Part shown: piece by piece, positions 2,803 through 19,614 of the stretch
Position numbering within the stretch: position 1 is the first letter of the stretch
How the letters are laid out: each line of letters begins with the position of its first letter
Source of the DNA: Microcoleus sp. B6-A1
GTDB taxonomy: Bacteria; Cyanobacteriota; Cyanobacteriia; Cyanobacteriales; Microcoleaceae
DNA: 24,000 bases
Reading direction: 5' to 3' (one strand)
Assembly (NCBI GenBank): GCA_036705085.1
Contig: JAUBTU010000002.1
Notes under the pieces: generated by a model
The model's database searches: none
What the model saw: the letters and a program-made list of their open reading frames with translations, nothing else
Told to the model about the DNA's origin: nothing
Made by a program: the position numbers and the translations under genes

Positions 2803-2848
2803 GTCAGTTGACTGTTGACTGTTGACTGTTGACTGTTGACTGTTGTCA
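2803..2848. repeat. Heptanucleotide tandem array (GTTGACT/TTGACTG) x5 perfect plus partial copies (STRR-type)
   Basis: Direct reading: cagttgactgttgactgttgactgttgactgttgactgttgtca, starting just after the radical SAM stop codon. Confidence 0.95.
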
Positions 2849-3860: not shown

Positions 3861-4977
3861 GTGGAAGTTCTAGACATCAAACACAACATCGAAACATTGT
3901 GCGATCGACTGGGTACAACCCAGGACTATCTTTGACATCCCCGCACTTACAGCCAAAATTCAAGACTTAGAGCAAATCTGCGCCCAACCAGCATTTTGGG
4001 ACGACCAAGATAGAGCTCAAGAAACCCTCCAAGAACTTAATGACTTCAAATCTCATTTAGACCAATATCGCGGCTGGCAAACTAGCTTGGCAGATGCTAA
4101 AGCTATTTTAGAACTGCTGGAGTTAGAAGCCGACGAGTCCCTGTTCCAAGAAGCCTCATCAAGTCTTTCTCGGTTAACCCGCGAACTCGACCAGTGGGAA
4201 CTGCAACAATTACTATCCGGGCCCTACGACGAAGGCGGCGCCGTTTTGACGATTAACGCCGGGGCCGGCGGCACAGATGCTCAAGATTGGGCCGAAATGC
4301 TGCTGCGGATGTACACCCGCTGGGGGGAAAGTCAAGGTTACAAAGTACATTTAATGGAAATTTCCGAGGGAGAGGAAGCAGGTGTTAAATCTGCTTCTTT
4401 GGAAATTGTCGGCCGCTACGCTTACGGTTATATGCGATCGGAAAAAGGCACTCACCGCTTGGTCAGAATTTCGCCTTTTAATGCTAATGACAAGCGTCAA
4501 ACCAGTTTTGCAGGCGTTGAAGTGATGCCAATTCTCGATCGATCCGTCAAGTTGGACATTCCCGAAAAGGATTTGGAAATCACGACTTCCCGCGCGGGCG
4601 GCAAGGGCGGGCAAAATGTTAACAAGGTGGAAACCGCAGTCCGCATCGTGCACCTTCCTACCGGTTTGGCTGTCCGCTGCACCGAAGAACGCAGTCAGTT
4701 GCAAAATAAGGAAAAAGCTTTGGCATTACTCAAGGCTAGGCTGTTGGTAGTTGCTAAGGAACAGCGGGCTTCGGAAATTGCCGAGATTCGCGGCGATATG
4801 GTGGAGGCGGCTTGGGGCAACCAAATTCGCAATTATGTTTTTCACCCATACCAAATGGTCAAGGATTTGCGTACTGGAGTGGAAACAACCGCCATCGCAG
4901 ATGTGATGAACGGCGAATTAGACCCGTTTATTCAAGCTTACCTGCGGCAGGAAAATCAGTTGGTCAGTAGTCAGTAG
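3861..4977 (+). CDS. prfB: Peptide chain release factor 2, with programmed +1 ribosomal frameshift (frame 0: 3861..3932; frame +1: 3934..4977)
   Basis: GTG at 3861 is preceded by AGGAG (3848-3852). Frame 0 reads ...Q D Y L then TGA at 3933-3935 within 'tat ctt tga c'. The +1 frame from 3934 is continuous with track ORF 4087..4977. That ORF carries the RF2 'SPF' motif ('RISPFNA') and the GGQ motif ('[16 protein letters not shown]'). Confidence 0.93.
3927..3936 (+). promoter_or_regulatory. prfB: prfB autoregulatory +1 frameshift site (TAT CTT TGA C)
   Basis: The slippery CTT-T followed by an in-frame TGA-C matches the canonical RF2 recoding site. A weak SD-like AGGA sits a few nt upstream (3922-3925). 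Confidence 0.9.
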
Positions 4978-5022
4978 TCAGTAGTCAGTTGACAGTAGTC
5001 AGTAGTCAGTAGTCAGTAGTCA
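4964..5022. repeat. Heptanucleotide tandem array (TCAGTAG) ~8 copies, overlapping the prfB 3' end
   Basis: Direct reading: tcagtag tcagtag tcagtag tcagttg acagtag tcagtag tcagtag tcagtag. The last prfB codons (..V S S Q stop) are encoded by the first repeat units. Confidence 0.95.
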
Positions 5023-5455: not shown

Positions 5456-6916
5456 CTAAATTGATTCGGCAGATATAATGCCTTGCGATTCTAGTACCGC
5501 AGCGACTCGGAGAATCACCGCTTCGCTGTAGGGAGCACCAATAATTTGTACCCCCAAGGGCAAAGCGCCGGGCCGCTGTACGGGCACGCAAAGAACGGGC
5601 AAGCCAATAAATGATAGGGGTTGGGTGAACAGTCCGAGATTGGGACGCACTCTTGTTTCTTGTCCGGCTATTACCATTTTCTCGACGCCAATTTCAGGGG
5701 CAGCTATCGGGGTGACGGGTGCGAGGATGATGTCTGTTTGTTGGAATATTTCGCGAATTCGATCGCGGTACCACTGTCTGAATCTCTGCGCTTGCAAGTA
5801 CCAAGTCGCAGGGATCAGGGTTCCCGCTAAAAATCGATCGCGCGTCGCCGGATCGAAGTCTTGAGGGCGCGATCGTAAATTGTCTAAATGCAAGTTTCCG
5901 CCCTCGCAGGCGGTAATGATAAACGCCGCAGCCCTGGCGCGATCGGATTCCGGTATGGTGACAGTTGCAAGCCCCCCTATTTTTGGGGGGTTTGTTGTTT
6001 TTTCTGTGCCTTTACCACAATCCAAGACATTTGTCAAGGCTTTAGCAACTATTTCTACAGCATCCATTGCTTCCGGTTCGGCCCCTGTGGCGAAATACCC
6101 GTCAGCAACAGCAATTCGCAATCCTTCGATGCCTTGATTTAACTGCGGCGAACAAAGTTCAGGCGGGCGTTGAGTGCAAACTGGGTCACGAGAATCAGGG
6201 CCTTGCAGGATATCGTACAGCAGCGCCATATCCCTGATCGAGCGCCCAAACGGCCCCACACAATCCAAACTACTCGAAAATAAAAAAGCGCCAGCCCTTG
6301 ACAAACGGCCGTAAGTAGGCTTAAACCCAAAGACACCGCACAAAGCAGCCGGTACGCGGATGGAACCGTTAGTATCAGAACCGAGGGTGATGGGTACAAA
6401 ACCGGCGGCGACTGCTGCTGCGGAACCGCCGCTGGAACCGCCGGCGATGCGCGCAGTATCGCGGGGATTGCGAGTCGGCCCGTAGTGGCTGTTTTCCGTG
6501 ACGAAACCGTAGGCGTACTCATCCATGTTGAGCGTACCTACAAGCACAGCCCCGGCTTGTTTTAGTCGGGCGACCACGGCCGCGTCCTGGGTAGCCGGAG
6601 GATTGTCAGCGTTGATTTTTGACCCTGCTAGGGTAGTAATTCCGCCGATGTCGTACAGGTTTTTGACAGCGAAGGGAACGCCTGCTAAAGGGCCTGGGTT
6701 TTGGTTATTTGCGATCGAATTATCTATATTTTCGGCTGCTGCGAGTGCGCTTGATTCAGTGATTGCAGTAAAGCAATTGAGGACGTTATCTCGATCGGCA
6801 ATTCGTTCTAATGCCGCAGTCACAACCGCTGTCGCTGTAATTTTACCACTTTTAACCGCTGATGCTGTGGCGACTGCATCCGCTTGTGCTAAAAATTTAC
6901 GTTCCTCTGCGTTCAT
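5456..6916 (-). CDS. Amidase-signature enzyme, AtzE-like / GatA-like amidohydrolase
   Basis: 486 aa with the amidase signature 'GGSSGGSAAAVAAG', 'GSDTNGSIRVPAALCG' and the Lys context 'FAVKNLYD'. It is immediately preceded by a DUF4089/AtzG-like small ORF, the partner expected for AtzE-type amidases. Confidence 0.8.
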   Translation of the reverse strand: MNAEERKFLAQADAVATASAVKSGKITATAVVTAALERIADRDNVLNCFTAITESSALAAAENIDNSIANNQNPGPLAGVPFAVKNLYDIGGITTLAGSKINADNPPATQDAAVVARLKQAGAVLVGTLNMDEYAYGFVTENSHYGPTRNPRDTARIAGGSSGGSAAAVAAGFVPITLGSDTNGSIRVPAALCGVFGFKPTYGRLSRAGAFLFSSSLDCVGPFGRSIRDMALLYDILQGPDSRDPVCTQRPPELCSPQLNQGIEGLRIAVADGYFATGAEPEAMDAVEIVAKALTNVLDCGKGTEKTTNPPKIGGLATVTIPESDRARAAAFIITACEGGNLHLDNLRSRPQDFDPATRDRFLAGTLIPATWYLQAQRFRQWYRDRIREIFQQTDIILAPVTPIAAPEIGVEKMVIAGQETRVRPNLGLFTQPLSFIGLPVLCVPVQRPGALPLGVQIIGAPYSEAVILRVAAVLESQGIISAESI

Positions 6917-6930
6917 CTGCGGTTCAAAAT

Positions 6931-7107
6931 CTAAGGTTCAAATACCGGCGCGACTTCTACTTCTGGGGGTAAGGGGAATTCAGTAACGAGTCGGGCGATC
7001 GCAGCTATTCTCTCGAAGTTTACCACAACACCGGGGCGGTGTTCCGGGTCTAAGGGTAAGTTTATCAGTTCGGCGGTGCGATCGACATATTCTTCTATAT
7101 TTGTCAT
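6931..7107 (-). CDS. AtzG-like / DUF4089 small protein (58 aa); below the ORF-track length cutoff
   Basis: Hand translation of the minus strand from ATG 7107 to TAG 6931 gives MTNIEEYVDRTAELINLPLDPEHRPGVVVNFERIAAIARLVTEFPLPPEVEVAPVFEP. The 'L.L..EHRPGV..N.ERIAA.A' and C-terminal 'APVF.P' patterns match my recollection of DUF4089/AtzG. It ends 14 nt before the amidase ATG. Confidence 0.7.
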   Translation of the reverse strand: MTNIEEYVDRTAELINLPLDPEHRPGVVVNFERIAAIARLVTEFPLPPEVEVAPVFEP

Positions 7108-7166
7108 TTTTTTCTTGCTAGCCTTGGAGTGCGATCGATTATTGTATTGTAAGGGCGATCGGGCTG

Positions 7167-7607
7167 TCAGTTATTATTGCTCAGTTTTTTGTATTCCTCA
7201 GATTGTCTGATATCATCTAAAGGAGATTTTGGCTCTAGTGGTTCATCAGGACAAAACTTTATAGATGTCTGCGTTTCCCCAGACTTTATGTTTTTATTAA
7301 CTTCGATTTGAACCTTTCCTTTTTGCCAACCCTTGGAACCAATTTTGATAATTTGACAATCGATTCCTTCTTCATGCGATTTCCAGTTTATCTCGCCTAC
7401 ACTAATTATTGTTTCTGGGTTAATCTTTAGCTCTCTCATCCAATCCCTTATGTATTGTCCATTTGCGGGAATCCCCAGGATCTCACTCAACTTGCTACCC
7501 GATAGCTCTTTAAACTTTCGTACCAGAAAAGTTGTTTGACCGAATAACAAAACATCATCATCGCCTACTGCCTCATAGTTTTTATTGGATTCAATTTTAT
7601 CGTTCAT
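7167..7607 (-). CDS. KGK-domain protein (cyanobacteria-restricted family of unknown function)
   Basis: 146-aa ORF containing 'IKIGSKGWQKGKVQIEV', the eponymous KGK motif context. The coding region is AT-rich relative to the flanks. Confidence 0.6.
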   Translation of the reverse strand: MNDKIESNKNYEAVGDDDVLLFGQTTFLVRKFKELSGSKLSEILGIPANGQYIRDWMRELKINPETIISVGEINWKSHEEGIDCQIIKIGSKGWQKGKVQIEVNKNIKSGETQTSIKFCPDEPLEPKSPLDDIRQSEEYKKLSNNN

Positions 7608-7635
7608 TTTTTTTCAAAATTCGGGTTATTCCTCT

Positions 7636-7664
7636 TTGATACCATTTCAATATCTCTGAGTCAA
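7636..7664 (-). promoter_or_regulatory. Candidate sigma70-type promoter for the KGK gene
   Basis: On the minus strand: TTGACT (7664-7659), a 17-nt spacer, then TATCAA (7641-7636), ~30 nt upstream of the ATG at 7607. Motif match only. Confidence 0.3.
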
Positions 7665-7701
7665 GGTGGTAAAGAAACAATTTGCGATCGCACTTTTCCA
7701 C

Positions 7702-8154
7702 TCAAACACTAACAGTTTCCCGCAACTTCTCAACTGCAACATCCAGCGGAGGCAAAGCAAAATCCTCAGCATCCATCAATTCCTTAACCTTCTCAAAAAT
7801 CTCAACCTCCGCCTCTTCTTGGTCTGTCAGCTTATCATAAAAATAAGGGTCAGTAAACCACTGTTCAAACGCTATCATTAACAAGCCATTGGGTGAAAGG
7901 TCAAACCGCCAATACTTAGAAATTCTGCTGTCAACCACTTCAAACATCGGCGCCGGATTATGGATGGGATAATAGCTATAATTATCATTGCAGATGTAGT
8001 ACCAAATAGTCCCTTTCCATTCTCGGATAGCATAAACAACATATTCCTTGCCTATAGTTAGCGGTAACTCAACCTTTCTAGTGTAACCGCGTGGCGGATC
8101 TATATATTCTTCAGGAAGAGATTCACCAGTCTTAGCAATACAACGAATTTTCAT
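7702..8154 (-). CDS. Hypothetical 150-aa protein, downstream member of duplicated cassette (copy 1); candidate immunity-like partner
   Basis: Intact ORF, paralogous to 8559..9011. It starts 11 nt after the stop of the 102-aa ORF. The C-terminal tail is acidic. No family is recognised with certainty. Confidence 0.6.
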   Translation of the reverse strand: MKIRCIAKTGESLPEEYIDPPRGYTRKVELPLTIGKEYVVYAIREWKGTIWYYICNDNYSYYPIHNPAPMFEVVDSRISKYWRFDLSPNGLLMIAFEQWFTDPYFYDKLTDQEEAEVEIFEKVKELMDAEDFALPPLDVAVEKLRETVSV

Positions 8155-8165
8155 AACTTGATTAC

Positions 8166-8474
8166 CTACAGATTTTTAGGGGCTGTTTTGGGATACTGTC
8201 GCTTGAACTTAAACTCCACATCTTGAAGAGTCTGACTGTTCCGAAACCAATGGACTTGTACGGAAGCTCCATTAATTTCAAAAGCCTCAATACTTGTCAT
8301 TTTATCCCAATCTTCAGCATTCCCGCCATAAACAGCAATAAGTCTCCGTGCATCGCCCAACAGTCTATCTGTACCGCAATGAATGACTATGCAATTACCA
8401 GCCTTAGCATCTTCCAGGAGCAATTGCTCCGGCAAATTTCTCGGACTCTCATCGGGAATAGCACCTTGATTCAT
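8166..8474 (-). CDS. Hypothetical 102-aa protein, upstream member of duplicated cassette (copy 1); candidate orphan toxin-like C-terminal module
   Basis: Intact ORF with an ATG start, paralogous to 9023..9331. The pattern 'NLPEQLLL.DAKA...LGD..R....YGG...DW.KM.......G..V.VHWFRN..T...VEFKFK' resembles C-terminal modules I recall from polymorphic toxins. This rests on memory, not a search. Confidence 0.55.
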   Translation of the reverse strand: MNQGAIPDESPRNLPEQLLLEDAKAGNCIVIHCGTDRLLGDARRLIAVYGGNAEDWDKMTSIEAFEINGASVQVHWFRNSQTLQDVEFKFKRQYPKTAPKNL

Positions 8475-8558
8475 AGTTTAACAGTTGCAGATGTTATTTG
8501 TCAAAAAGCTGTTTGAATCAACGGCAAAAGACTAAATTTACCTTCCCACTTTCTCAAC

Positions 8559-9011
8559 TCAAACACTGACACTTTCCCGCAACTTCTCAACTGCAACATC
8601 CAGCGGAGGCAAAGCAAAATCCTCAGCATCCATCAATTCCTTAACCTTCTCAAAAACCTCAACCTCTGCCTCTTCCTGATCCGTCAGCTTATCATAAAAA
8701 TAAGGGTCAGTAAACCACTGCTCAAAAGCAATCTCTAACCGCCCATTCGGTGCTAGTTCAAACCGCCAATACTTAGAAACTCTACTATCAACCACCTCAA
8801 ACAGCGGTGCAGGATTCTGCATGGGATAATAGGTGTAGTTATCGTCACAGATATAGTACCAAACATTACCCTGCGATTGGTAAAGAGCGTAGACAACATA
8901 TTCTTTGCCAAGCGTTAGCGGAAATTCCACTTCTTTCGTAAAATAGAACTCAGGCTTGAGGTAACTTTCAGGGAGAGCATTACCTGTATTGGCAATACAG
9001 CGAATTTTCAT
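8559..9011 (-). CDS. Hypothetical 150-aa protein, cassette copy 2; candidate immunity-like partner
   Basis: Paralog of 7702..8154. The last ~57 residues are nearly identical to copy 1, while the N-terminal ~90 residues are much more divergent. Confidence 0.6.
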   Translation of the reverse strand: MKIRCIANTGNALPESYLKPEFYFTKEVEFPLTLGKEYVVYALYQSQGNVWYYICDDNYTYYPMQNPAPLFEVVDSRVSKYWRFELAPNGRLEIAFEQWFTDPYFYDKLTDQEEAEVEVFEKVKELMDAEDFALPPLDVAVEKLRESVSV

Positions 9012-9022
9012 GTTTTTTATAA

Positions 9023-9331
9023 CTACAGATTTTTTAGTGTAGTTTTAGGATATGTACGTTTGAATTTAAACTCAACAGTTTGGGCAGTCTCGTTATTTCT
9101 GAACCAATGTACTTCAACAACTGCTCCCTCAATTACTGCGGTTTGGGAACTAACCATTTTAACCCAATCACCGACTTTGCCCCCGTAATTAGCGACCAAT
9201 CGGGGAGCATCTCCCAACGGCTTATCTGCACTGCCTAGAATTCGTTTGCCGACGCTAGCTTTAGCATCTTGCAACAGAAGTTGCTCCGGCAAATTTCTCG
9301 GACTCTCATCGGGAATAGCACCTTGATTCAC
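9023..9331 (-). CDS. Hypothetical 102-aa protein, cassette copy 2 (GTG start); candidate orphan toxin-like module
   Basis: Paralog of 8166..8474 with gapless alignment. The first 20 residues are identical, the centre is divergent, and the 'VHWFRN...VEFKFKR.YPKT' end is conserved. Confidence 0.55.
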   Translation of the reverse strand: MNQGAIPDESPRNLPEQLLLQDAKASVGKRILGSADKPLGDAPRLVANYGGKVGDWVKMVSSQTAVIEGAVVEVHWFRNNETAQTVEFKFKRTYPKTTLKNL

Positions 9332-9357
9332 AATTTAACAGCTTCAAATATTGTTTG

Positions 9358-10775
9358 TCAAATACCATAAAAACTAATTTTAGCAGGTTCAGTTTCCGCC
9401 AGCAACTTTCCCCGCGAAATCACATAGCGAACCGCAGCGCGCATCCTAATTGCATCATAACAATCCTCAGCGTCCAACACAATCAAATTAGCAGGTTTCC
9501 CCGCCTCTATCCCATAATTATCATCTCCCAGATTGAGAGTTTTAGCACCGTTGACAGTGACCATATCAAAACAAGCTGCAATCTCAGCCATTCCCGTCAT
9601 CTGACAAACATGAACCGCCATATGAGCGACATCCAACATATTTCCCGTACCTAAACTATACCAAGGATCTTGCACACAGTCGTGGCCAAAACTCACATTC
9701 AATCCCTGCTGCCACAACTCCTTAACTCGCGTCACCCCACGGCGTTTGGGATAAGTATCAGCGCGGCCTTGCAGGGTGATATTAATTAAAGGATTGGCGA
9801 TGAAATTAATTCGCGATTTGGCCAAACTTCCCATCAGCTTAAAAGCATAAGCATTGTTGTAAGAACCGAAAGCCGTCGTGTGGCTTGCAGTCACCCGCGA
9901 ACCAGCCCCGCTTCTAATCGCACAAGCCGCTACAACCTCCAAAAATCTCGACTGTTCATCATCGATTTCATCGCAGTGAACATCTATTAATCTATGGTAT
10001 TTTTCAGCAAGTTCAAAAATTCGCTCAACCGACTTCACCCCATCTTCCCGCGTCAACTCATAATGCGGAATCCCGCCCACAGCATCCGCACCCATATCCA
10101 GAGATTTCTCTAAGAGTTTGTCATTTTCTGGACTTCCGTAAATCCCGTCTTGAGGAAAAGCCACAACTTGCAGAGTCATCCAATCTTTGACTTGTTCACG
10201 AACTTCCAAAAGTCCTTGCAAAGCAGTCAGCGTCGGTTCGCTAACATCAGCGTGACTCCTGACAAACAAAATCCCTTGAGACGCTTGCAGCTTTAAAGTT
10301 TCTACAGCCCGTTTTTTGACATCATCCAGAGTTAAACATTGCTTGCGTTCCCCCCAGATTTGAATACCCTCGAACAAAGTGCCGCTTTCATTCCATCGCG
10401 GTTCCCCCGCAGTCAATCGATTTTAGATTTTAGATTTTAGATTTTAGATTTTAGACTGAAGCATTGACCCCACGGATAAATTCGGGGGGCAAGTTTCATC
10501 GGATACAGGTTTTTATTTCTCCACCGATGAATCCGGGGGCTTGTATCCTGGATGCTTTCAGTCAAAGCCGAATCGAGATGAATGTGCGAATCCACAAAAG
10601 GAGGACTAACTAAATTGCCTTGAATGTCGATTTCGCGTTCGCCAAGTTCTGATACCCGATGCGAAACGGCGACTATTTGGTCATCCTCGATAGCAATATC
10701 AACCGTTGGGCGATCATCGCCCGCACCTAACAAACGACATTCGCGCAGAACAATGCTATACTTTTGCTCAGGCAT
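9358..10775 (-). pseudogene. codA: Cytosine deaminase interrupted by a 149-bp insertion (fragments 10437..10775 and 9358..10416 lie in different frames)
   Basis: The fragments align collinearly with E. coli CodA as I recall it. The N-fragment has 'PPFVDSHIHLDSALT'. The C-fragment has 'AGEPRWNESGTLFEGI...DVHCDEIDDEQSRF...VTASHTTA...GHDCVQDPWY'. The N-fragment runs into the inserted sequence and stops inside a heptamer array. Confidence 0.85.
10410..10565 (-). mobile_element. MITE-like insertion (142 bp) in codA, flanked by a 7-bp direct repeat TTGACTG; includes a (TAAAATC)x5 array
   Basis: On the plus strand, cagtcaa occurs at 10410-10416 and 10559-10565. Between them lie ttttaga x5 (10421-10455) and ~100 bp with internal imperfect repeats (gcccccggattcatcggtgg / gccccccgaatttatccgtgg on the gene strand). 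Removing 10417-10565 restores ...GCT TTG ACT GCG GGG GAA... in frame. Confidence 0.75.
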
Positions 10776-10884
10776 GACAATTGCAGCTATTTTAATACTT
10801 GTAAACTTTATCCTTCCTAGTTGCGATTGGGCCTAGTGATTCCAAAATAATTCCCCAATCACTTGCGAACCCCCTCCTTCTCCT

Positions 10885-10915
10885 CCTCTGCGTCCTCTGC
10901 GCCCTCTGCGGTTAA
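10885..10915. repeat. Short tandem CCTCTGCG-type repeat ending CCCTCTGCGGTTAA (dispersed element, copy 1)
   Basis: Reads cctctgcg t cctctgcg c cctctgcg gttaa. The same terminal 14-mer recurs at 11546-11559. Confidence 0.85.
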
Positions 10916-10968
10916 AAAATCTTACTCAAAAATCACCAAAAAGAAAGCGCAACTACAAATCGCCAACA

Positions 10969-11499
10969 TCAGACAATCTCAAACTCCAGATTGTGATTTT
11001 TCACAAAATCAAAAGTAAAATGGTCAACCACATTAGTATCGCTCAATTCCAGATTGTAAAAATCAACAAAATCCGCATCAAAATACGGCCCAGCGTGCCA
11101 AGTCCCCACATCTAACTTAATAAAACAATTGCCCGGAATCCGAAAAGCAGCCATATCCTCTAAACTCGGTTTATCGCTATCCCCAGGAGGCGCAACCGCC
11201 ATCAACCAATCCTTCCCATCCAAAGAACCCAAACACTGAGTACATTCAACGTGCCGCGTAATTTTGCGAAACTTGCGACCTTCCTTATGGAGCCGCATAA
11301 TGTAAAATCTAGGAACACCATTTTGCAAATTTAACTGAGCATCCTCAGCATCGAAAGACTTGCCATCAACAGCCGTAAAGATAACTTGACCGTAACTCCG
11401 AAAATTCTCCCGTGTCACCCATTGGGCAAACAACTGCTTAGTCGAAATTGATTCGCTCATAAATCCCAACACCCCCTCCCTGCTTTCCATCAAAAGCAT
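10969..11499 (-). CDS. Ureidoglycolate lyase/hydrolase-family (AllA-like) cupin protein
   Basis: 176-aa ORF with 'PRFYIMRL', 'ITRHVECTQCLGSL' and 'GTWHAGPYF', motifs I associate with the AllA-type fold. The true start may be the internal Met ('MSESISTKQ', near 11460). Confidence 0.55.
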   Translation of the reverse strand: MLLMESREGVLGFMSESISTKQLFAQWVTRENFRSYGQVIFTAVDGKSFDAEDAQLNLQNGVPRFYIMRLHKEGRKFRKITRHVECTQCLGSLDGKDWLMAVAPPGDSDKPSLEDMAAFRIPGNCFIKLDVGTWHAGPYFDADFVDFYNLELSDTNVVDHFTFDFVKNHNLEFEIV

Positions 11500-11529
11500 T
11501 TTAATACAGTAACTCCTCTCTCTTCTCTT

Positions 11530-11559
11530 CTCTGTGCCCTCTGTGCCCTCTGCGGTTAA
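11530..11559. repeat. Short tandem CTCTGTGCC repeat ending CCCTCTGCGGTTAA (dispersed element, copy 2)
   Basis: Reads ctctgtgcc ctctgtgcc ctctgcgg ttaa, directly abutting the cobB stop codon. Confidence 0.85.
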
Positions 11560-13098
11560 TTAAATAAAAAAATCCAGTTCGCTTTCTCGATCGCCCAAAA
11601 CACCCTTACAATCAAACTCAGCACACTGCTGCAAAAAACGAGCCGGAATATCAGGCCGAGCACCCCAATGCAAATGCAAATAAGAAGCGTGTACCTGACA
11701 AACTCCCCAACCTTCAGCAACCGCCTCAACCTCCCCCCGCTTCCCATACCTCCAACTGTGATAAACTGGATTACTCGGTTCAACAGTTAAATGCGATCGA
11801 TGAAACTCATGTCCCCAAACCTCATCAAAAGCAGTTAACACCAAACTATCCCTCACCGCCACCGCTTCTCGGTATCCCAGCGTCAAACGCTTTCCCATCG
11901 CAGCAGCAGTTTCCAACACACCCACCCCTGGCCAAGAATTGCCATCGAAGTCTACAATAGAATCGCACAAATACATCAAACCGCCGCACTCCGCATAAGT
12001 CGGCATTCCCGAAAAAATCGCACTTCTTACCGCATCCCGAATTAAAACATTACCGCTCAATTTTTGAGCAAACACTTCGGGAAAACCACCACCAAAATAT
12101 AACCCTTGCACATTGTCAGGAAAAACCGAGTCATCAAGAGGACTCCAAAACACCAACTGGGCACCCAACTCTTCCAACAAATCAAGATTGTCCTGATAGT
12201 AAAAATTAAAAGCCCGATCGCGCGCAACCGCAATCCTCACTCCAAATTGTTTTCCCAAACAGTTGACAACATCATTTTTTTGAGTTACAATTCCCGAAGG
12301 GAGACTGTGCCTACCCGAAAGTTGCTCAGACCCCTCACCCCCCCCATTTCGAGTTGCAGCCAACAAAGGCAAAAGTTGCTCCCAGTCAAAACTAACAGCA
12401 GCCAAATCAGCCAGTTTATCGATCGCAGCATGAAGATTCGGCAACTCCTCAGCAGGAATCAGCCCCAAATGTCGATCGGGAATAGTAACAGCCTCATCCC
12501 TACGCAAAACGCCCAAAATAGGTAAATTGATCGGTTTGAGAGCATCTTGAAGCAGTTCCAAATGTCGATCGCTCGCCACCCGATTCAGCACCAAACCAGC
12601 GAATTTAAGGTCAGGGTTAAAAGAACGAAAACCGTGGGCGATCGCAGCCACAGAACCAGAGAGCCTGCTGCAATCTATCACAAACAATACCGGCAAATTC
12701 AGCAAATAAGCCACATGAGCCGTAGAAGCAAAGGAAAAATCATAATTGCCTTCTTCTTTTCGATAATTAATCCCTGTATCCGTGTCGTGCCTTTGTGATT
12801 CCTGATTCCTTCGACTCACTCCATCAAATAGTCCCATCACCCCTTCAACTAAGGCATAATCGACATCTTGAATATGACGATAAAAACACTTTTTTACATA
12901 AGATTCAGACGTTAATACCGGGTCTAAATTCCGACAGGGGCGACCAGTAACAAAAGCATGAAACATCGGGTCAATGTAATCCGGGCCTACCTTAAAAGAC
13001 TGAACATTCAAGCCGCGACGGATTAAAAAAGCTAAAAGGGCGATCGTCACAGTAGTCTTTCCCGCACCGCTGCGTTCGCCAGCAATTACTAAAGCCAT
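11560..13098 (-). CDS. cobB: Cobyrinate a,c-diamide synthase (CobB/CbiA)
   Basis: N-terminal 'ALVIAGERSGAGKTTVTIALLAFL' P-loop. C-terminal glutamine amidotransferase-type region with 'YAECGGLMYL' and 'GHEFH'. At 512 aa, the length and order fit CobB/CbiA. Confidence 0.88.
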   Translation of the reverse strand: MALVIAGERSGAGKTTVTIALLAFLIRRGLNVQSFKVGPDYIDPMFHAFVTGRPCRNLDPVLTSESYVKKCFYRHIQDVDYALVEGVMGLFDGVSRRNQESQRHDTDTGINYRKEEGNYDFSFASTAHVAYLLNLPVLFVIDCSRLSGSVAAIAHGFRSFNPDLKFAGLVLNRVASDRHLELLQDALKPINLPILGVLRRDEAVTIPDRHLGLIPAEELPNLHAAIDKLADLAAVSFDWEQLLPLLAATRNGGGEGSEQLSGRHSLPSGIVTQKNDVVNCLGKQFGVRIAVARDRAFNFYYQDNLDLLEELGAQLVFWSPLDDSVFPDNVQGLYFGGGFPEVFAQKLSGNVLIRDAVRSAIFSGMPTYAECGGLMYLCDSIVDFDGNSWPGVGVLETAAAMGKRLTLGYREAVAVRDSLVLTAFDEVWGHEFHRSHLTVEPSNPVYHSWRYGKRGEVEAVAEGWGVCQVHASYLHLHWGARPDIPARFLQQCAEFDCKGVLGDRESELDFFI

Positions 13099-14911: not shown

Positions 14912-14946
14912 GTAAATCTAAAATCTAAAATCTAAAATCTAAAATC
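14912..14946. repeat. Heptanucleotide tandem array (TAAAATC) x4 plus one variant copy
   Basis: Reads gtaaatc taaaatc taaaatc taaaatc taaaatc in the zwf-opcA intergenic region. On the plus strand it is the reverse complement of the array read at 10421-10455. Confidence 0.95.
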
Positions 14947-16489: not shown

Positions 16490-17890
16490 CTATTTTGCTC
16501 CTTCTAAAGCTGACAGCCGCGCTAATACGGCTTGATAATTAGCAGTTATAGCGTTCGGCAACGAAATCTTGGAGTATTTCGGAGTATTTCTTAGTATTTC
16601 GCAGTCTGAGAATGCGTATCCATAACCATCATTCCTGTAAACGAAATGTACATCTTTCATGGTTGAAAAGCTGATTCGGTTCCCGTTGATGAGAACTTCA
16701 CAACCGTTCTTGTTTGGGGTTTTCACCCGTGCGGTGTAGATTCCTGCTTTCACCTTTTTTCTATCCTTGTTGATCGAAACCTTGACAATATCGCCAGCAC
16801 TGACATGATGAAACACATCTTTCGCCCTCTTGACTGCCGGGAATCCTGATGCGTTGACGCGCCGTGCTTGACGGTTCCCATGTCCTTTACAGGTAACAAG
16901 TAAAGGTTGATGGGTTCGCAAATTGATCGACTGCCCTGATTCCCCAATACAGGCGGCATCAATGCTGTGAGCCTTTTCTAACCCCTGAGAGCATCGGTTA
17001 TATTTCGTTCTCCCACCCGTCCAGCATTTGACCGAATCACATAATCCTTTCGCCATTCGCACAATTGCGTAACGAGTCGCGTTGACTGCTGCCGCATCCT
17101 TCAAAGGTTGCTTTACTTGTTTGAGAATTCGATCTAGGGTGCTCGGCTTTTGTAATAAAAAATCTCTGATGTCTCGATCGCCTTTCGCCTGATTACAAGC
17201 ATGGCAAGCCAATGTGAGATTAGAAACCCGATCGCTTCCTCCTTTTGATTTTGGATAAATGTGTTCGATTTCTAATGGCACATTCTCAGTGCCACAGTAC
17301 GCACATTTTCTCTCCCATTTTTGCAACAGATATTCACGCACTTCATAGCCGAATAACGTCCCTTGCTGATACTCTATACCGTTGATTTCAGGATGCTGCA
17401 ACTTCTGTATATCGAAGCGAACTTGCTCAATTTCAATGCACTCCACGGGGCAATACCGAATCAACCGCTTAATCCACGTCTCAACGGTTAAGACGCGGTG
17501 CCGAATGGAAGGTGCTAACCATCCTTCGGGTTTGCGGCGATCTAACCGCTTTTTGCGATACCGCAGATTGCGAGAACGTCTTCCCCGTCTGAATCCTGCC
17601 CGTTGCTCCAGGCCTGCTTTAATCGTTTCGCCACGATGCTGCAACTCCATCCTCCACACAATATCTTGACCGCATTGCAAGGCGAATCCGGTGAATTTTG
17701 ACCCCGGATCTATCTTGATGGAATACAACTTTGTGACAGGATTTTGCACTCGCTCTGGCAAAATCAAAACGTAGGGATATTGGCGAAACACTTTCGCCTT
17801 CCCCTTTGATTGAATCTCTCTCGCACGAGCAGGATGAATCAGATCTAATGGCATTTTATCGGTATTCAAAAGAAACACATAATTTGGCAT
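16490..17890 (-). CDS. iscB: IscB (OMEGA-system RNA-guided RuvC/HNH nuclease, Cas9 ancestor); the track ORF extends to a GTG at 17905
   Basis: Domain order: an N-terminal PLMP-like segment ('[26 protein letters not shown]'); RuvC-I '[14 protein letters not shown]'; an Arg-rich bridge helix '[15 protein letters not shown]'; RuvC-II '[11 protein letters not shown]'; HNH 'CAYCG...[34 protein letters not shown]'; RuvC-III '[10 protein letters not shown]'; and a C-terminal '...NGNRISF...YRNDGYGY' TAM-interaction-like domain. The ATG at 17890 has GGAGAAGG just upstream. Confidence 0.85.
16571..16600. repeat. 10-nt tandem repeat (GGAGTATTTC x2 + TTAGTATTTC) inside the 3' tail of the iscB ORF
   Basis: Direct reading of 16571-16600. 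On the coding strand it encodes '...[11 protein letters not shown]...', downstream of the conserved IscB C-terminal '[10 protein letters not shown]'. Confidence 0.9.
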
Positions 17891-18260
17891 TTCTGCCTTC
17901 TCCACATATTGGGTTAAGTTTGCTTCGATCGGCTTGAGGGCTTGTTAATCGGTTTGGTGTTCTACCTTCAGAAACTAGGCGATGTTCCTCCCCTAACCGC
18001 TTGGGACTAGCAATCTCTATAGCTGAGAAAATCCCATTAAGGTTGTGACCTTTCAAGCGTCTCCACCTTCCTCAAGGGTGGGATCTGGCGTAGCAGGTAG
18101 ATTAACTACTGAAGATTCGGGAAGACCCCGAATTACTCTGTTTCTTTGCTACTCATTTCTGCTAGTTGCTCGGCCAGATAGCTAATCTGTGCTTCGTAGT
18201 TAGGAATGGAAACTCAGCATTTAGGAACCAAAACAATTATCCATTCCGACTCCTAAATGC
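17891..18260 (-). ncRNA. Candidate IscB omega-RNA (scaffold upstream of and abutting iscB; 5' boundary and guide not determinable here)
   Basis: IscB omega-RNAs are encoded directly 5' of iscB. This 370-nt non-coding stretch has no ORF. On the minus strand it contains several hairpins: ATTCGGGgtcttCCCGAAT (~18119-18137), CCACCcttgaggaaGGTGG (~18063-18081), and interleaved pairings at 18203-18260. The extent is a guess. Confidence 0.5.
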
Positions 18261-19515: not shown

Positions 19516-19612
19516 TTAGTTGTTAGTTGTTAGTTGTGATTTTTTGGTTTTAATCACCAATAACTAATGACCAATAACTAATGACTAATTACCAATAACT
19601 AATGACTAATGA
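19516..19612. repeat. Heptamer-based tandem arrays: (TTAGTTG)x3, then (ACCAATA/ACTAATG)-type 7/14-nt repeats
   Basis: ttagttg x3 at 19516-19536. 'accaataactaatg' repeats with variants across ~19555-19612, in the fbp-tal intergenic region. Confidence 0.9.
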
Positions 19613-19614
19613 CT

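Follow-up and report, generated by a model that had tools for sequence, protein, structure and literature searches.

Stand-alone toxin cassettes have belonged to the description of polymorphic toxin systems from the beginning (Zhang et al. 2012, PMC3482391). In these systems the toxin domain forms the tip of a larger carrier, such as the Rhs/YD-repeat proteins or the DUF4157 proteins of Photorhabdus virulence cassettes (PVC) and extracellular contractile injection systems (eCIS), and an immunity gene lies immediately downstream. It has also been reported that Rhs toxin tips and their immunity genes function as toxin-antitoxin (TA) modules of type II in Salmonella (Starsta et al. 2020, PMC7043789). 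The locus compared here with these systems comes from the cyanobacterium Microcoleus sp. B6-A1 (contig JAUBTU010000002.1) and lies in a stretch of 24,000 nucleotides (nt), referred to below as the window. It consists of two pairs of small genes, A-B and A'-B', in which a gene for a protein of 102 amino acids (aa; A or A') is followed by one for a protein of 150 aa (B or B'); the letters A and B also designate the two protein families.

The reading that we favour, with a probability of about 0.6, is that an autonomous toxin-immunity cassette without a carrier is present at this locus in two stacked alleles of ancient divergence, type III followed by type I, and that it would be used inside the cell in a TA-like manner. 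The polymorphic-toxin kind of such a system is already known; what is new is an uncharacterised toxin/immunity family in the form of a free-standing, recombination-armed cassette.

The likeness to polymorphic toxin systems (PMC3482391) is extensive. A is homologous to the tips of their carriers, B homologues are encoded immediately downstream of those tips, tip and immunity gene swap together, near-identical carriers bear unrelated tips, and diverged cassettes are stacked. Unlike in those systems, A is a free open reading frame (ORF) of 102 aa with its own start, and no carrier, processing domain or secretion genes are found nearby. In addition, the Microcoleus cassette occupies a fixed chromosomal site in the whole genus, and its conserved arms lie in the 5' end of the toxin gene and the 3' end of the immunity gene, not in the constant region of a carrier. 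The orphan rhs/cdi modules of Salmonella (PMC7043789) also combine tip and immunity gene without a delivery part, and a TA-like use inside the producer has been proposed for them. However, the Salmonella orphan lies beside a full-length rhs gene, keeps rhs core sequence and is expressed from internal promoters, whereas the Microcoleus cassette contains no rhs sequence at all and is unlinked to a carrier. A classical rhs/cdi orphan keeps part of the constant region of the carrier, has no start of its own and lies downstream of the main toxin gene, none of which applies to A.

Protein A as a carrier tip and B as its partner

Relatives of A were collected by an exhaustive profile search built from 45 A sequences, which returned 862 proteins at E ≤ 1e-3, 97 of them at E ≤ 1e-10. 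The full A domain is present in 136 of the 146 best representatives and lies at the extreme C-terminus in 134 of these 136; in 44 of them it is preceded by at least 150 residues. According to Pfam, the carrier P0298 combines RHS repeats, DUF6531 and the pretoxin domain PT-HINT. RHS repeats are also found in P0320, P0330, P0345, P0346, P0373, P0263 and P0277, and eCIS_core (PF13699, formerly DUF4157) in P0291, P0336 and P0259. P0254 is an eCIS_core fusion by precomputed Pfam annotation, and its gene lies directly upstream of a contractile-injection operon; the eCIS_core-A fusions are encoded inside or beside such operons. In none of the RHS and eCIS_core carriers scanned is the A-type tip covered by a Pfam model. 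The earlier note on this DNA had compared A with the C-terminal module of a polymorphic toxin, and had regarded homologues that are never fused to delivery domains as evidence to the contrary. These fusions support the comparison and are the opposite of the latter case.

The closest carrier-fused relative of A is P0242, a protein of 520 aa with a signal-peptide-like N-terminus. Its first ~400 residues are shared with proteins from Nostoc, Umezakia and Scytonema and represent a cyanobacterial carrier, whose sister proteins end in EndoU_bacteria, Ribonuclease (PF00545), CdiA_C, Cytotoxic (PF09000; colicin-E3-type) or unannotated tails. One of them, P0388, is 92% identical to P0242 over residues 1-409 and unrelated thereafter, and the gene that follows it has no similarity to B. 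At the DNA level, loci L080 and L092 share nearly identical carrier sequences up to a single point, beyond which tip and downstream ORF differ completely: one locus has A and B, the other an unrelated tip and a 122-aa ORF without similarity to B. The conserved N-terminal 'PDESPRNLPEQL' segment of A, which reads 'KGPIPDE.P.NLQEQ' in distant carrier-fused homologues, had been taken in the earlier note for the junction between carrier and toxin. This turned out to be wrong, as the segment is part of the toxin domain and the true swap point lies ~14 residues upstream of it in the one carrier pair aligned.

B homologues are located directly 3' of all three non-eCIS carriers examined. The one after P0242 follows a gap of 12 nt (57% identity, hhalign probability 100), the one after the RHS/PT-HINT protein P0298 a gap of 22 nt (39% identity, probability 99.9), and the one after the RHS protein P0320 overlaps the carrier gene by 4 nt (E = 3e-35 with the hidden Markov model, HMM). 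No B was found in the available flanks of the eCIS_core-A fusions, in line with the observation that toxins of the PVC type are often without an immunity gene next to them (Zhang et al. 2012, PMC3482391). For 80 intact pairs, the clusters of A and those of B match nearly one to one. Because A tips carriers, B follows the fused A, and tip and downstream gene swap together, A and B are, on sequence grounds, very probably a toxin-immunity pair of a polymorphic-toxin family. The role of immunity protein that had been suggested for the 150-aa protein from its size and position is thus backed by its placement after three carrier-fused A proteins.

Two relatives show unusual architectures. The RHS protein P0320 (L088 4370-10813) contains a second, partial A-like stretch (profile positions 30-95) in its interior, at residues ~1400-1466, numbered from an ORF call that begins four residues upstream of the called gene. 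P0108, a metagenomic protein of 117 aa, joins an HNH-endonuclease-like N-terminus (CxxC...H motif) to the C-terminal ~70 residues of A, and this chimera may be a deletion or fusion product.

The family is uncharacterised, as the earlier note had supposed, in the sense that family scans, profile searches and fold comparison gave no match. Searches of A and B against Pfam, NCBIfam, PADLOC and PHROGs returned nothing significant, profiles of A (narrow and broad) and of B found nothing among PDB sequences, and 39 diverse proteins with the A domain, scanned against Pfam at E ≤ 1, showed no recurrent family. A has no significant match to known toxin families (Pfam Ntox/Tox, BECR-type RNases, HNH, deaminases, ADP-ribosyltransferases). 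Both AlphaFold2 (AF2) monomer models are confident. That of A' (type I; pLDDT 84.6) consists of a helix (14-24), a strand (28-33), a second helix (42-49) and four strands within residues 56-93, while residues 1-13 are disordered though conserved in sequence. That of B' (type I; pLDDT 80.3) has a beta-rich domain (1-95) followed by helices (97-148). The B homologue P0199 of Floridanema evergladense is labelled 'DUF402 domain-containing protein' by one source, a label that Pfam does not reproduce on the B proteins of the window.

The residues conserved in the A superfamily are D41, R44, L45, Y49, G50, W56, K58, H75, N79, T82, E87 and K89. The polar members of this set are of the kind used by metal-independent nucleases, and most sister tips of the cyanobacterial carrier are RNases. 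From this association and this residue chemistry, it may be guessed that A is an RNase; an RNase or another nuclease is a tentative assignment, somewhat short of an even chance, because profile and fold similarity are absent. Two results count against it: Foldseek found no match to the PDB at E < 0.001 for either AF2 model, and when the broad A profile was compared by hhalign with the tips that the sister carriers bear instead (EndoU, barnase-type, CdiA_C, Cytotoxic and unannotated), the probabilities were <1%. Among viral models (BFVD), A has two Foldseek matches below E = 0.001, a giant-virus 'hemagglutinin' and a 99-aa siphovirus protein, together with a weaker fold match to a 'minor capsid protein' of a phage. 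Minor capsid (MuF) domains of phages are known as carriers of polymorphic toxins, too.

Two reported toxin families were compared with A. Ntox6 is given in a table (Zhang et al. 2012, PMC3482391) as an alpha+beta toxin of PVC-metallopeptidase carriers in Microcoleus and Haliangium. By description only, it shares with A the alpha+beta fold class, the carrier type (the PVC metallopeptidase being DUF4157/eCIS_core) and the cyanobacterial occurrence, and its table row lists no immunity gene for the PVC form, matching the eCIS_core-A loci found here. The A domain could be Ntox6. Pfam models match neither A nor its fused relatives. On the other hand, PT5, the only new polymorphic-toxin family reported in Microcoleaceae by Nachmias et al., was rejected as the identity of A. 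This comparison used the motifs around the mutated residues R63, H77 and D102 of WP_084153669.1, and A contains nothing that corresponds to the primer-encoded peptides DAIRHEALT, GKFHTTKGEQY and SPSDRSA.

The free-standing cassette, its types and its arms

Close homologues form 147 clusters for A and 219 for B. All organism-named sources are cyanobacteria, mostly filamentous, and the genera named are Microcoleus, Tychonema, Oscillatoria, Planktothrix, Okeania, Limnofasciculus, Allocoleopsis and Crocosphaera. Among the 120 A clusters listed, 92 are exactly 102 aa long and none is fused to a larger protein. A survey of the gene neighbourhoods of homologues, as proposed in the earlier note, was carried out in species-representative genomes and gave 79 loci, whose ORFs were searched with HMMs in flanks of up to 8 kb. 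B directly follows A in every locus not cut by a contig end, with a gap that is mostly 11-13 nt. About 65 loci contain one pair and 10 contain two tandem pairs, while three (L037, L055 and L079) hold an extra B without an intact A. The earlier remark that no carrier lies nearby extends to all of them: no carrier, secretion or injection gene is present in the window or within ~8 kb at the 79 loci. The longest ORF of the window has 527 aa, and the A domain occurs there in no larger ORF and in no further copy.

In Microcoleus and Tychonema the cassettes occupy a single syntenic site, with the order CobB/CobQ-like gene, ureidoglycolate-lyase-like gene, Amidohydro_3 gene (sometimes absent), one or two A-B pairs, KGK-domain gene, AtzG-like gene and amidase gene. 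In other genera, the A-B pair keeps company with TA and conflict genes. It adjoins a HEPN/nucleotidyltransferase (HEPN/MNT) pair in Planktothrix tepida and a PIN gene with a 76-aa partner in Oscillatoria princeps, where caspase and nSTAND genes are near, and it follows TIR, VMAP-C and AAA genes in Crocosphaera. Since neither a carrier nor a KGK gene is present at these loci of Planktothrix, Oscillatoria and Crocosphaera, the A-B pair is the mobile unit.

A has the features of a gene in its own right. Each A copy of the window has an in-frame TAA two codons before its start, the position of the start is conserved, as the length of 102 aa is constant, and the sequence upstream of A contains no remnant of a carrier constant region. 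Both A and B are under purifying selection, which in the case of A extends over the full length. The ratio of non-synonymous to synonymous substitution rates (dN/dS) within types is 0.16-0.25 for A and 0.11-0.16 for B (7-31 genomes per type), and a comparison of the two window copies gives 0.18 for A as well as for B. Judged by these properties of the sequence, A and B are probably an autonomous, expressed gene pair and not a silent fragment.

A has been disrupted at least seven times, in several independent ways. The invariant Tyr49 is replaced by a stop codon (Y49*) in L053, L054, L068 and L071; K91* is found in L023, G69* in L064 and a frameshift in L075. L065 carries an insertion of ~1.5 kb after codon 12 of A, and in the second slot of L055 the gene is deleted except for its last nine codons. 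Only at L068 and L071 among these loci is B no longer a full-length ORF. Such toxin-first decay is what an active toxin-antidote pair predicts.

Three main cassette types can be distinguished, type I with 31 copies (including the downstream copy of the window), type II with 22 and type III with seven (including the upstream copy). Genomes hold a single type or the combinations III+I, II+I, I+II and Ib+II, the window being a case of III stacked on I. Over 55 cassettes, identity between types equals that within types at two arms (nt -29 to +60 and 601 to 780; 0.79-0.93), whereas the core (nt 61-600) is type-specific, with identities of 0.58-0.86 between types and 0.84-0.94 within them. Because the arms are near-identical and the core is type-specific, a cassette appears to be replaceable by homologous recombination through its arms.

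In the window, A and A' are 66% identical, with the N-terminal 25 aa and the C-terminal 'VHWFRN..VEFKFKR' kept and the middle diverged, and B shares 78% identity with B', which rises to near-identity over the last 50 aa. Synonymous divergence between the copies amounts to 1.36 for A and 0.73 for B as a whole, to 0.30 in codons 1-25 of A and to 0.06 in codons 126-150 of B; in the 3' arm, dS ranges from 0.06 to 0.37. The duplication is regarded as old because of the overall divergence of A and B and because the copies are of different allelic types. We infer that a single duplication event, with one junction, created the two-slot array, and that the contents of the slots were later replaced one by one through the arms. 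The junction structure of the spacer between the cassettes is common to the III+I, II+I and Ib+II tandem loci.

Proposed mode of action and its alternatives

In the mechanism that we propose, A would be an alpha/beta toxin domain of ~90 residues, expected to act in the cytoplasm because it has no signal peptide; B has none either. B, located 11 nt downstream, would be translated from the same transcript and would neutralise A by direct, type-specific binding. The specificity of this binding would come from the type-specific parts of both proteins, that is, residues ~21-102 of A and ~1-93 of B. The arms, formed by the 31 nt upstream of A with its first 20 codons and by the last ~60 codons of B, would be the places where recombination replaces cassettes. 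The pair would work like a type II TA module, with a role in addiction, growth control or defence.

This use inside the producing cell, argued by analogy, is the most likely one because A is an independent ORF without a delivery domain, and we put it close to an even chance, slightly on the lower side. As in type II TA modules, there are two small co-oriented genes 11 nt apart, the toxin is knocked out while the antidote is kept, and TA genes are neighbours in other genera. Unlike in those modules, and weighing against this use, the toxin comes first, an order typical of immunity systems and not of classical TA pairs; the antidote is larger than the toxin; B has no recognisable DNA-binding or antitoxin domain, no known TA family and no fold match; and neither protein matches TA families in Pfam, NCBIfam or PADLOC. 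On the same side stands a 31-nt element (TTGACA-N18-TAAAYT with TG) that ends exactly at the start codon of A, too close for a normal promoter of the A ORF. Finally, the matched types at one locus, the stacked arrays and the B genes without A at L037, L055 and L079 resemble loci of inter-strain competition and favour an exported toxin.

The latter is the strongest of the alternatives. In it, free A would be an inter-strain weapon or part of a kin-discrimination locus, delivered non-covalently, for instance as cargo of a contractile injection system or through some other pathway; B would protect kin, and strains of differing types would be incompatible. Three toxin types with strictly matched immunity types, stacked in four combinations at one syntenic locus, fit this idea, as do the relatives of A, which are eCIS and Rhs effectors, and the viral fold matches, which include the 'minor capsid protein' and the 'hemagglutinin' with an A-like fold. 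The B genes without an intact A fit as well, orphan immunity genes that guard against non-self effectors being an established idea (PMC10539506). Residues 1-13 of A, conserved but disordered in the model, could by way of speculation be a loading signal. However, neither a signal peptide nor a lipobox, a PAAR/LXG/MuF domain or any other trafficking domain is present in A, secretion or injection genes are absent from the window and from the 8 kb around the 79 loci, toxin-first decay is equally expected for a TA module, and the neighbours in other genera are TA and defence genes. Export is therefore considered rather unlikely. An extended form of it, somewhat less likely again, is that A is a toxin with a new fold in a recombination-armed self/non-self locus, where three or more allelic toxin/immunity types are exchanged and stacked by way of the conserved arms, that free A reaches neighbouring filaments by an undescribed route, and that it depends on the cassette type which trichomes may live together in one bundle or mat. 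If true, this would be a new mode of deployment of polymorphic toxins in a multicellular cyanobacterium.

The earlier note had left two functional suggestions side by side, a reservoir for recombination and a stand-alone TA or defence module of an uncharacterised family, and it is the second that fits better. In the first, the pairs would be a silent store of tip/immunity cassettes that are recombined onto a carrier gene located elsewhere in the genome, with only B expressed in the meantime. Swapping of tip and immunity gene on a carrier is directly visible in the A family, polymorphic toxin systems are defined so as to include stand-alone cassettes for recombination (PMC3482391), and conserved arms do flank a variable core. 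Nevertheless, a carrier is near none of the 79 loci, and A has its own conserved start codon with an in-frame stop two codons upstream, lacks any carrier remnant and is under purifying selection over its full length, which is not expected of an unexpressed fragment. Moreover, the 3' arm lies within B and not in a carrier, which makes the arms a means of exchanging one cassette for another at the locus. For these reasons the reservoir is improbable and the least likely of the three uses (TA-like, exported, reservoir). Domestication of the pair for a non-toxic role, for example as a regulatory enzyme and its inhibitor tied to nitrogen-heterocycle catabolism, is suggested by the position of the Microcoleus cassettes among ureidoglycolate-lyase-like, amidohydrolase, AtzG-like and amidase genes that form a co-oriented cluster, but it is very improbable, as the pair lies in unrelated contexts in other genera, persists at many loci where the amidohydrolase is absent or split, and shows in its recurrent A knock-outs with retained B and in its allelic diversity the signatures of a conflict system.

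The autonomous, TA-like cassette that we favour is of interest beyond this locus. A toxin-domain family and an immunity family without counterpart in Pfam, NCBIfam, PADLOC or the PDB are defined, and the A domain spans Rhs carriers, eCIS carriers and a secreted cyanobacterial carrier. The locus is a clear natural example in which the tip of a polymorphic toxin has become a gene pair standing on its own, fixed at one chromosomal site in a globally abundant soil cyanobacterium. Its three allelic types, with arms and toxin knock-outs, are a ready-made cross-immunity matrix and offer a way to ask whether such a cassette is a TA module or a kin-discrimination weapon in filamentous cyanobacteria, in which interbacterial antagonism has been little studied.

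Layout of the locus and its surroundings

The two pairs, both on the minus strand, repeat with an exact period of 857 nt (Table 1). The unit is covered by three families of direct repeats (D1-D3), whose copies are 71-88% identical and begin exactly 857 nt apart, far beyond chance, and the distance from the A stop to the B start is 11 nt in both pairs. Gene calls and repeats thus reproduce the period and the spacing described in the earlier note. Several Microcoleus genome contigs match the window with 92-95% identity over ~15 kb.

Table 1. Positions of the cassette features and of the adjoining gene in the window
Feature	Position	Strand	Remarks
5' conserved arm, cassette 1 (upstream element + first 20 codons of A)	9272..9362	-	cassette 2 counterpart 8415-8505
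31-nt conserved element directly 5' of the first A (TTGACA-N18-TAAATT with TG)	9332..9362	-	counterpart before A' 8475-8505
A, type III (A cluster 11), predicted toxin, stand-alone polymorphic-toxin C-terminal domain	9331..9023	-	102 aa, GTG start
B, type III (B cluster 9), predicted cognate immunity protein	9011..8559	-	150 aa
3' conserved arm, cassette 1 (last ~58 codons of B)	8559..8731	-	cassette 2 counterpart 7702-7874
Inter-cassette spacer, 84 nt	8475..8558	-	~53 nt share homology with the stretch that follows the last B; the other 31 nt are the A-upstream element
A', type I (A cluster 7), predicted toxin	8474..8166	-	102 aa, ATG start
B', type I (B cluster 11), predicted cognate immunity protein	8154..7702	-	150 aa
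KGK-domain gene (PF08872)	7167..7607	-	polymorphic; nearly always beside cassettes in Microcoleus

The 31-nt element precedes A in ~70 loci, nearly all of those related, independently of the gene upstream. In the window, the copy before the first A overlaps the stop codon of the amidohydrolase gene and holds the in-frame TAA. It was not adopted as a promoter of A because it abuts the start codon. In a scan for promoters and terminators, counts were not above those of shuffled sequences, promoter-like matches included, and no Rfam RNA family is present in window positions 6500-11000.

The KGK genes of Microcoleus occur in two strongly diverged forms, with ~35% versus 60-72% identity to the window copy. 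Each form has its own upstream region, and the two assort without regard to A-B type. The gene lies upstream of the cassettes, not downstream, in L019, L042 and L043. A third cassette component was considered for this gene and rejected, due to the independent assortment and to its absence at the annotated Planktothrix, Oscillatoria and Crocosphaera loci.

In the window, cassettes and KGK gene interrupt a co-oriented cluster (5456-13098, minus strand) that resembles one for nitrogen-heterocycle catabolism and comprises CobB/CobQ-like, ureidoglycolate-lyase-like, amidohydrolase, AtzG-like and amidase genes. The Amidohydro_3 (cytosine-deaminase-like) gene (9358-10775, minus strand) is split into ORFs of 112 and 352 aa, and a perfect array of the heptamer GATTTTA (5.3 copies, 10419-10455) lies exactly at the break. 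In related Microcoleus loci this gene is mostly one ORF of 420-450 aa; it is split in L014, L041, L074 and L076 and absent in others.

Several other perfect or near-perfect 7-nt tandem arrays are located between genes of the window (2807-2845, 4956-5022, 14914-14946 and 19551-19614), as are GCGATCGC (HIP1-like) sites; both are typical of filamentous cyanobacteria. At some distance from the cassettes (16490-17905, minus strand), the window encodes a protein of 471 aa with Pfam RRXRR (PF14239, E = 6e-61) and HNH domains, a layout which we take to be that of an RNA-guided nuclease of the IscB/OMEGA type. Genes of this type are expected to have an associated guide RNA just upstream.

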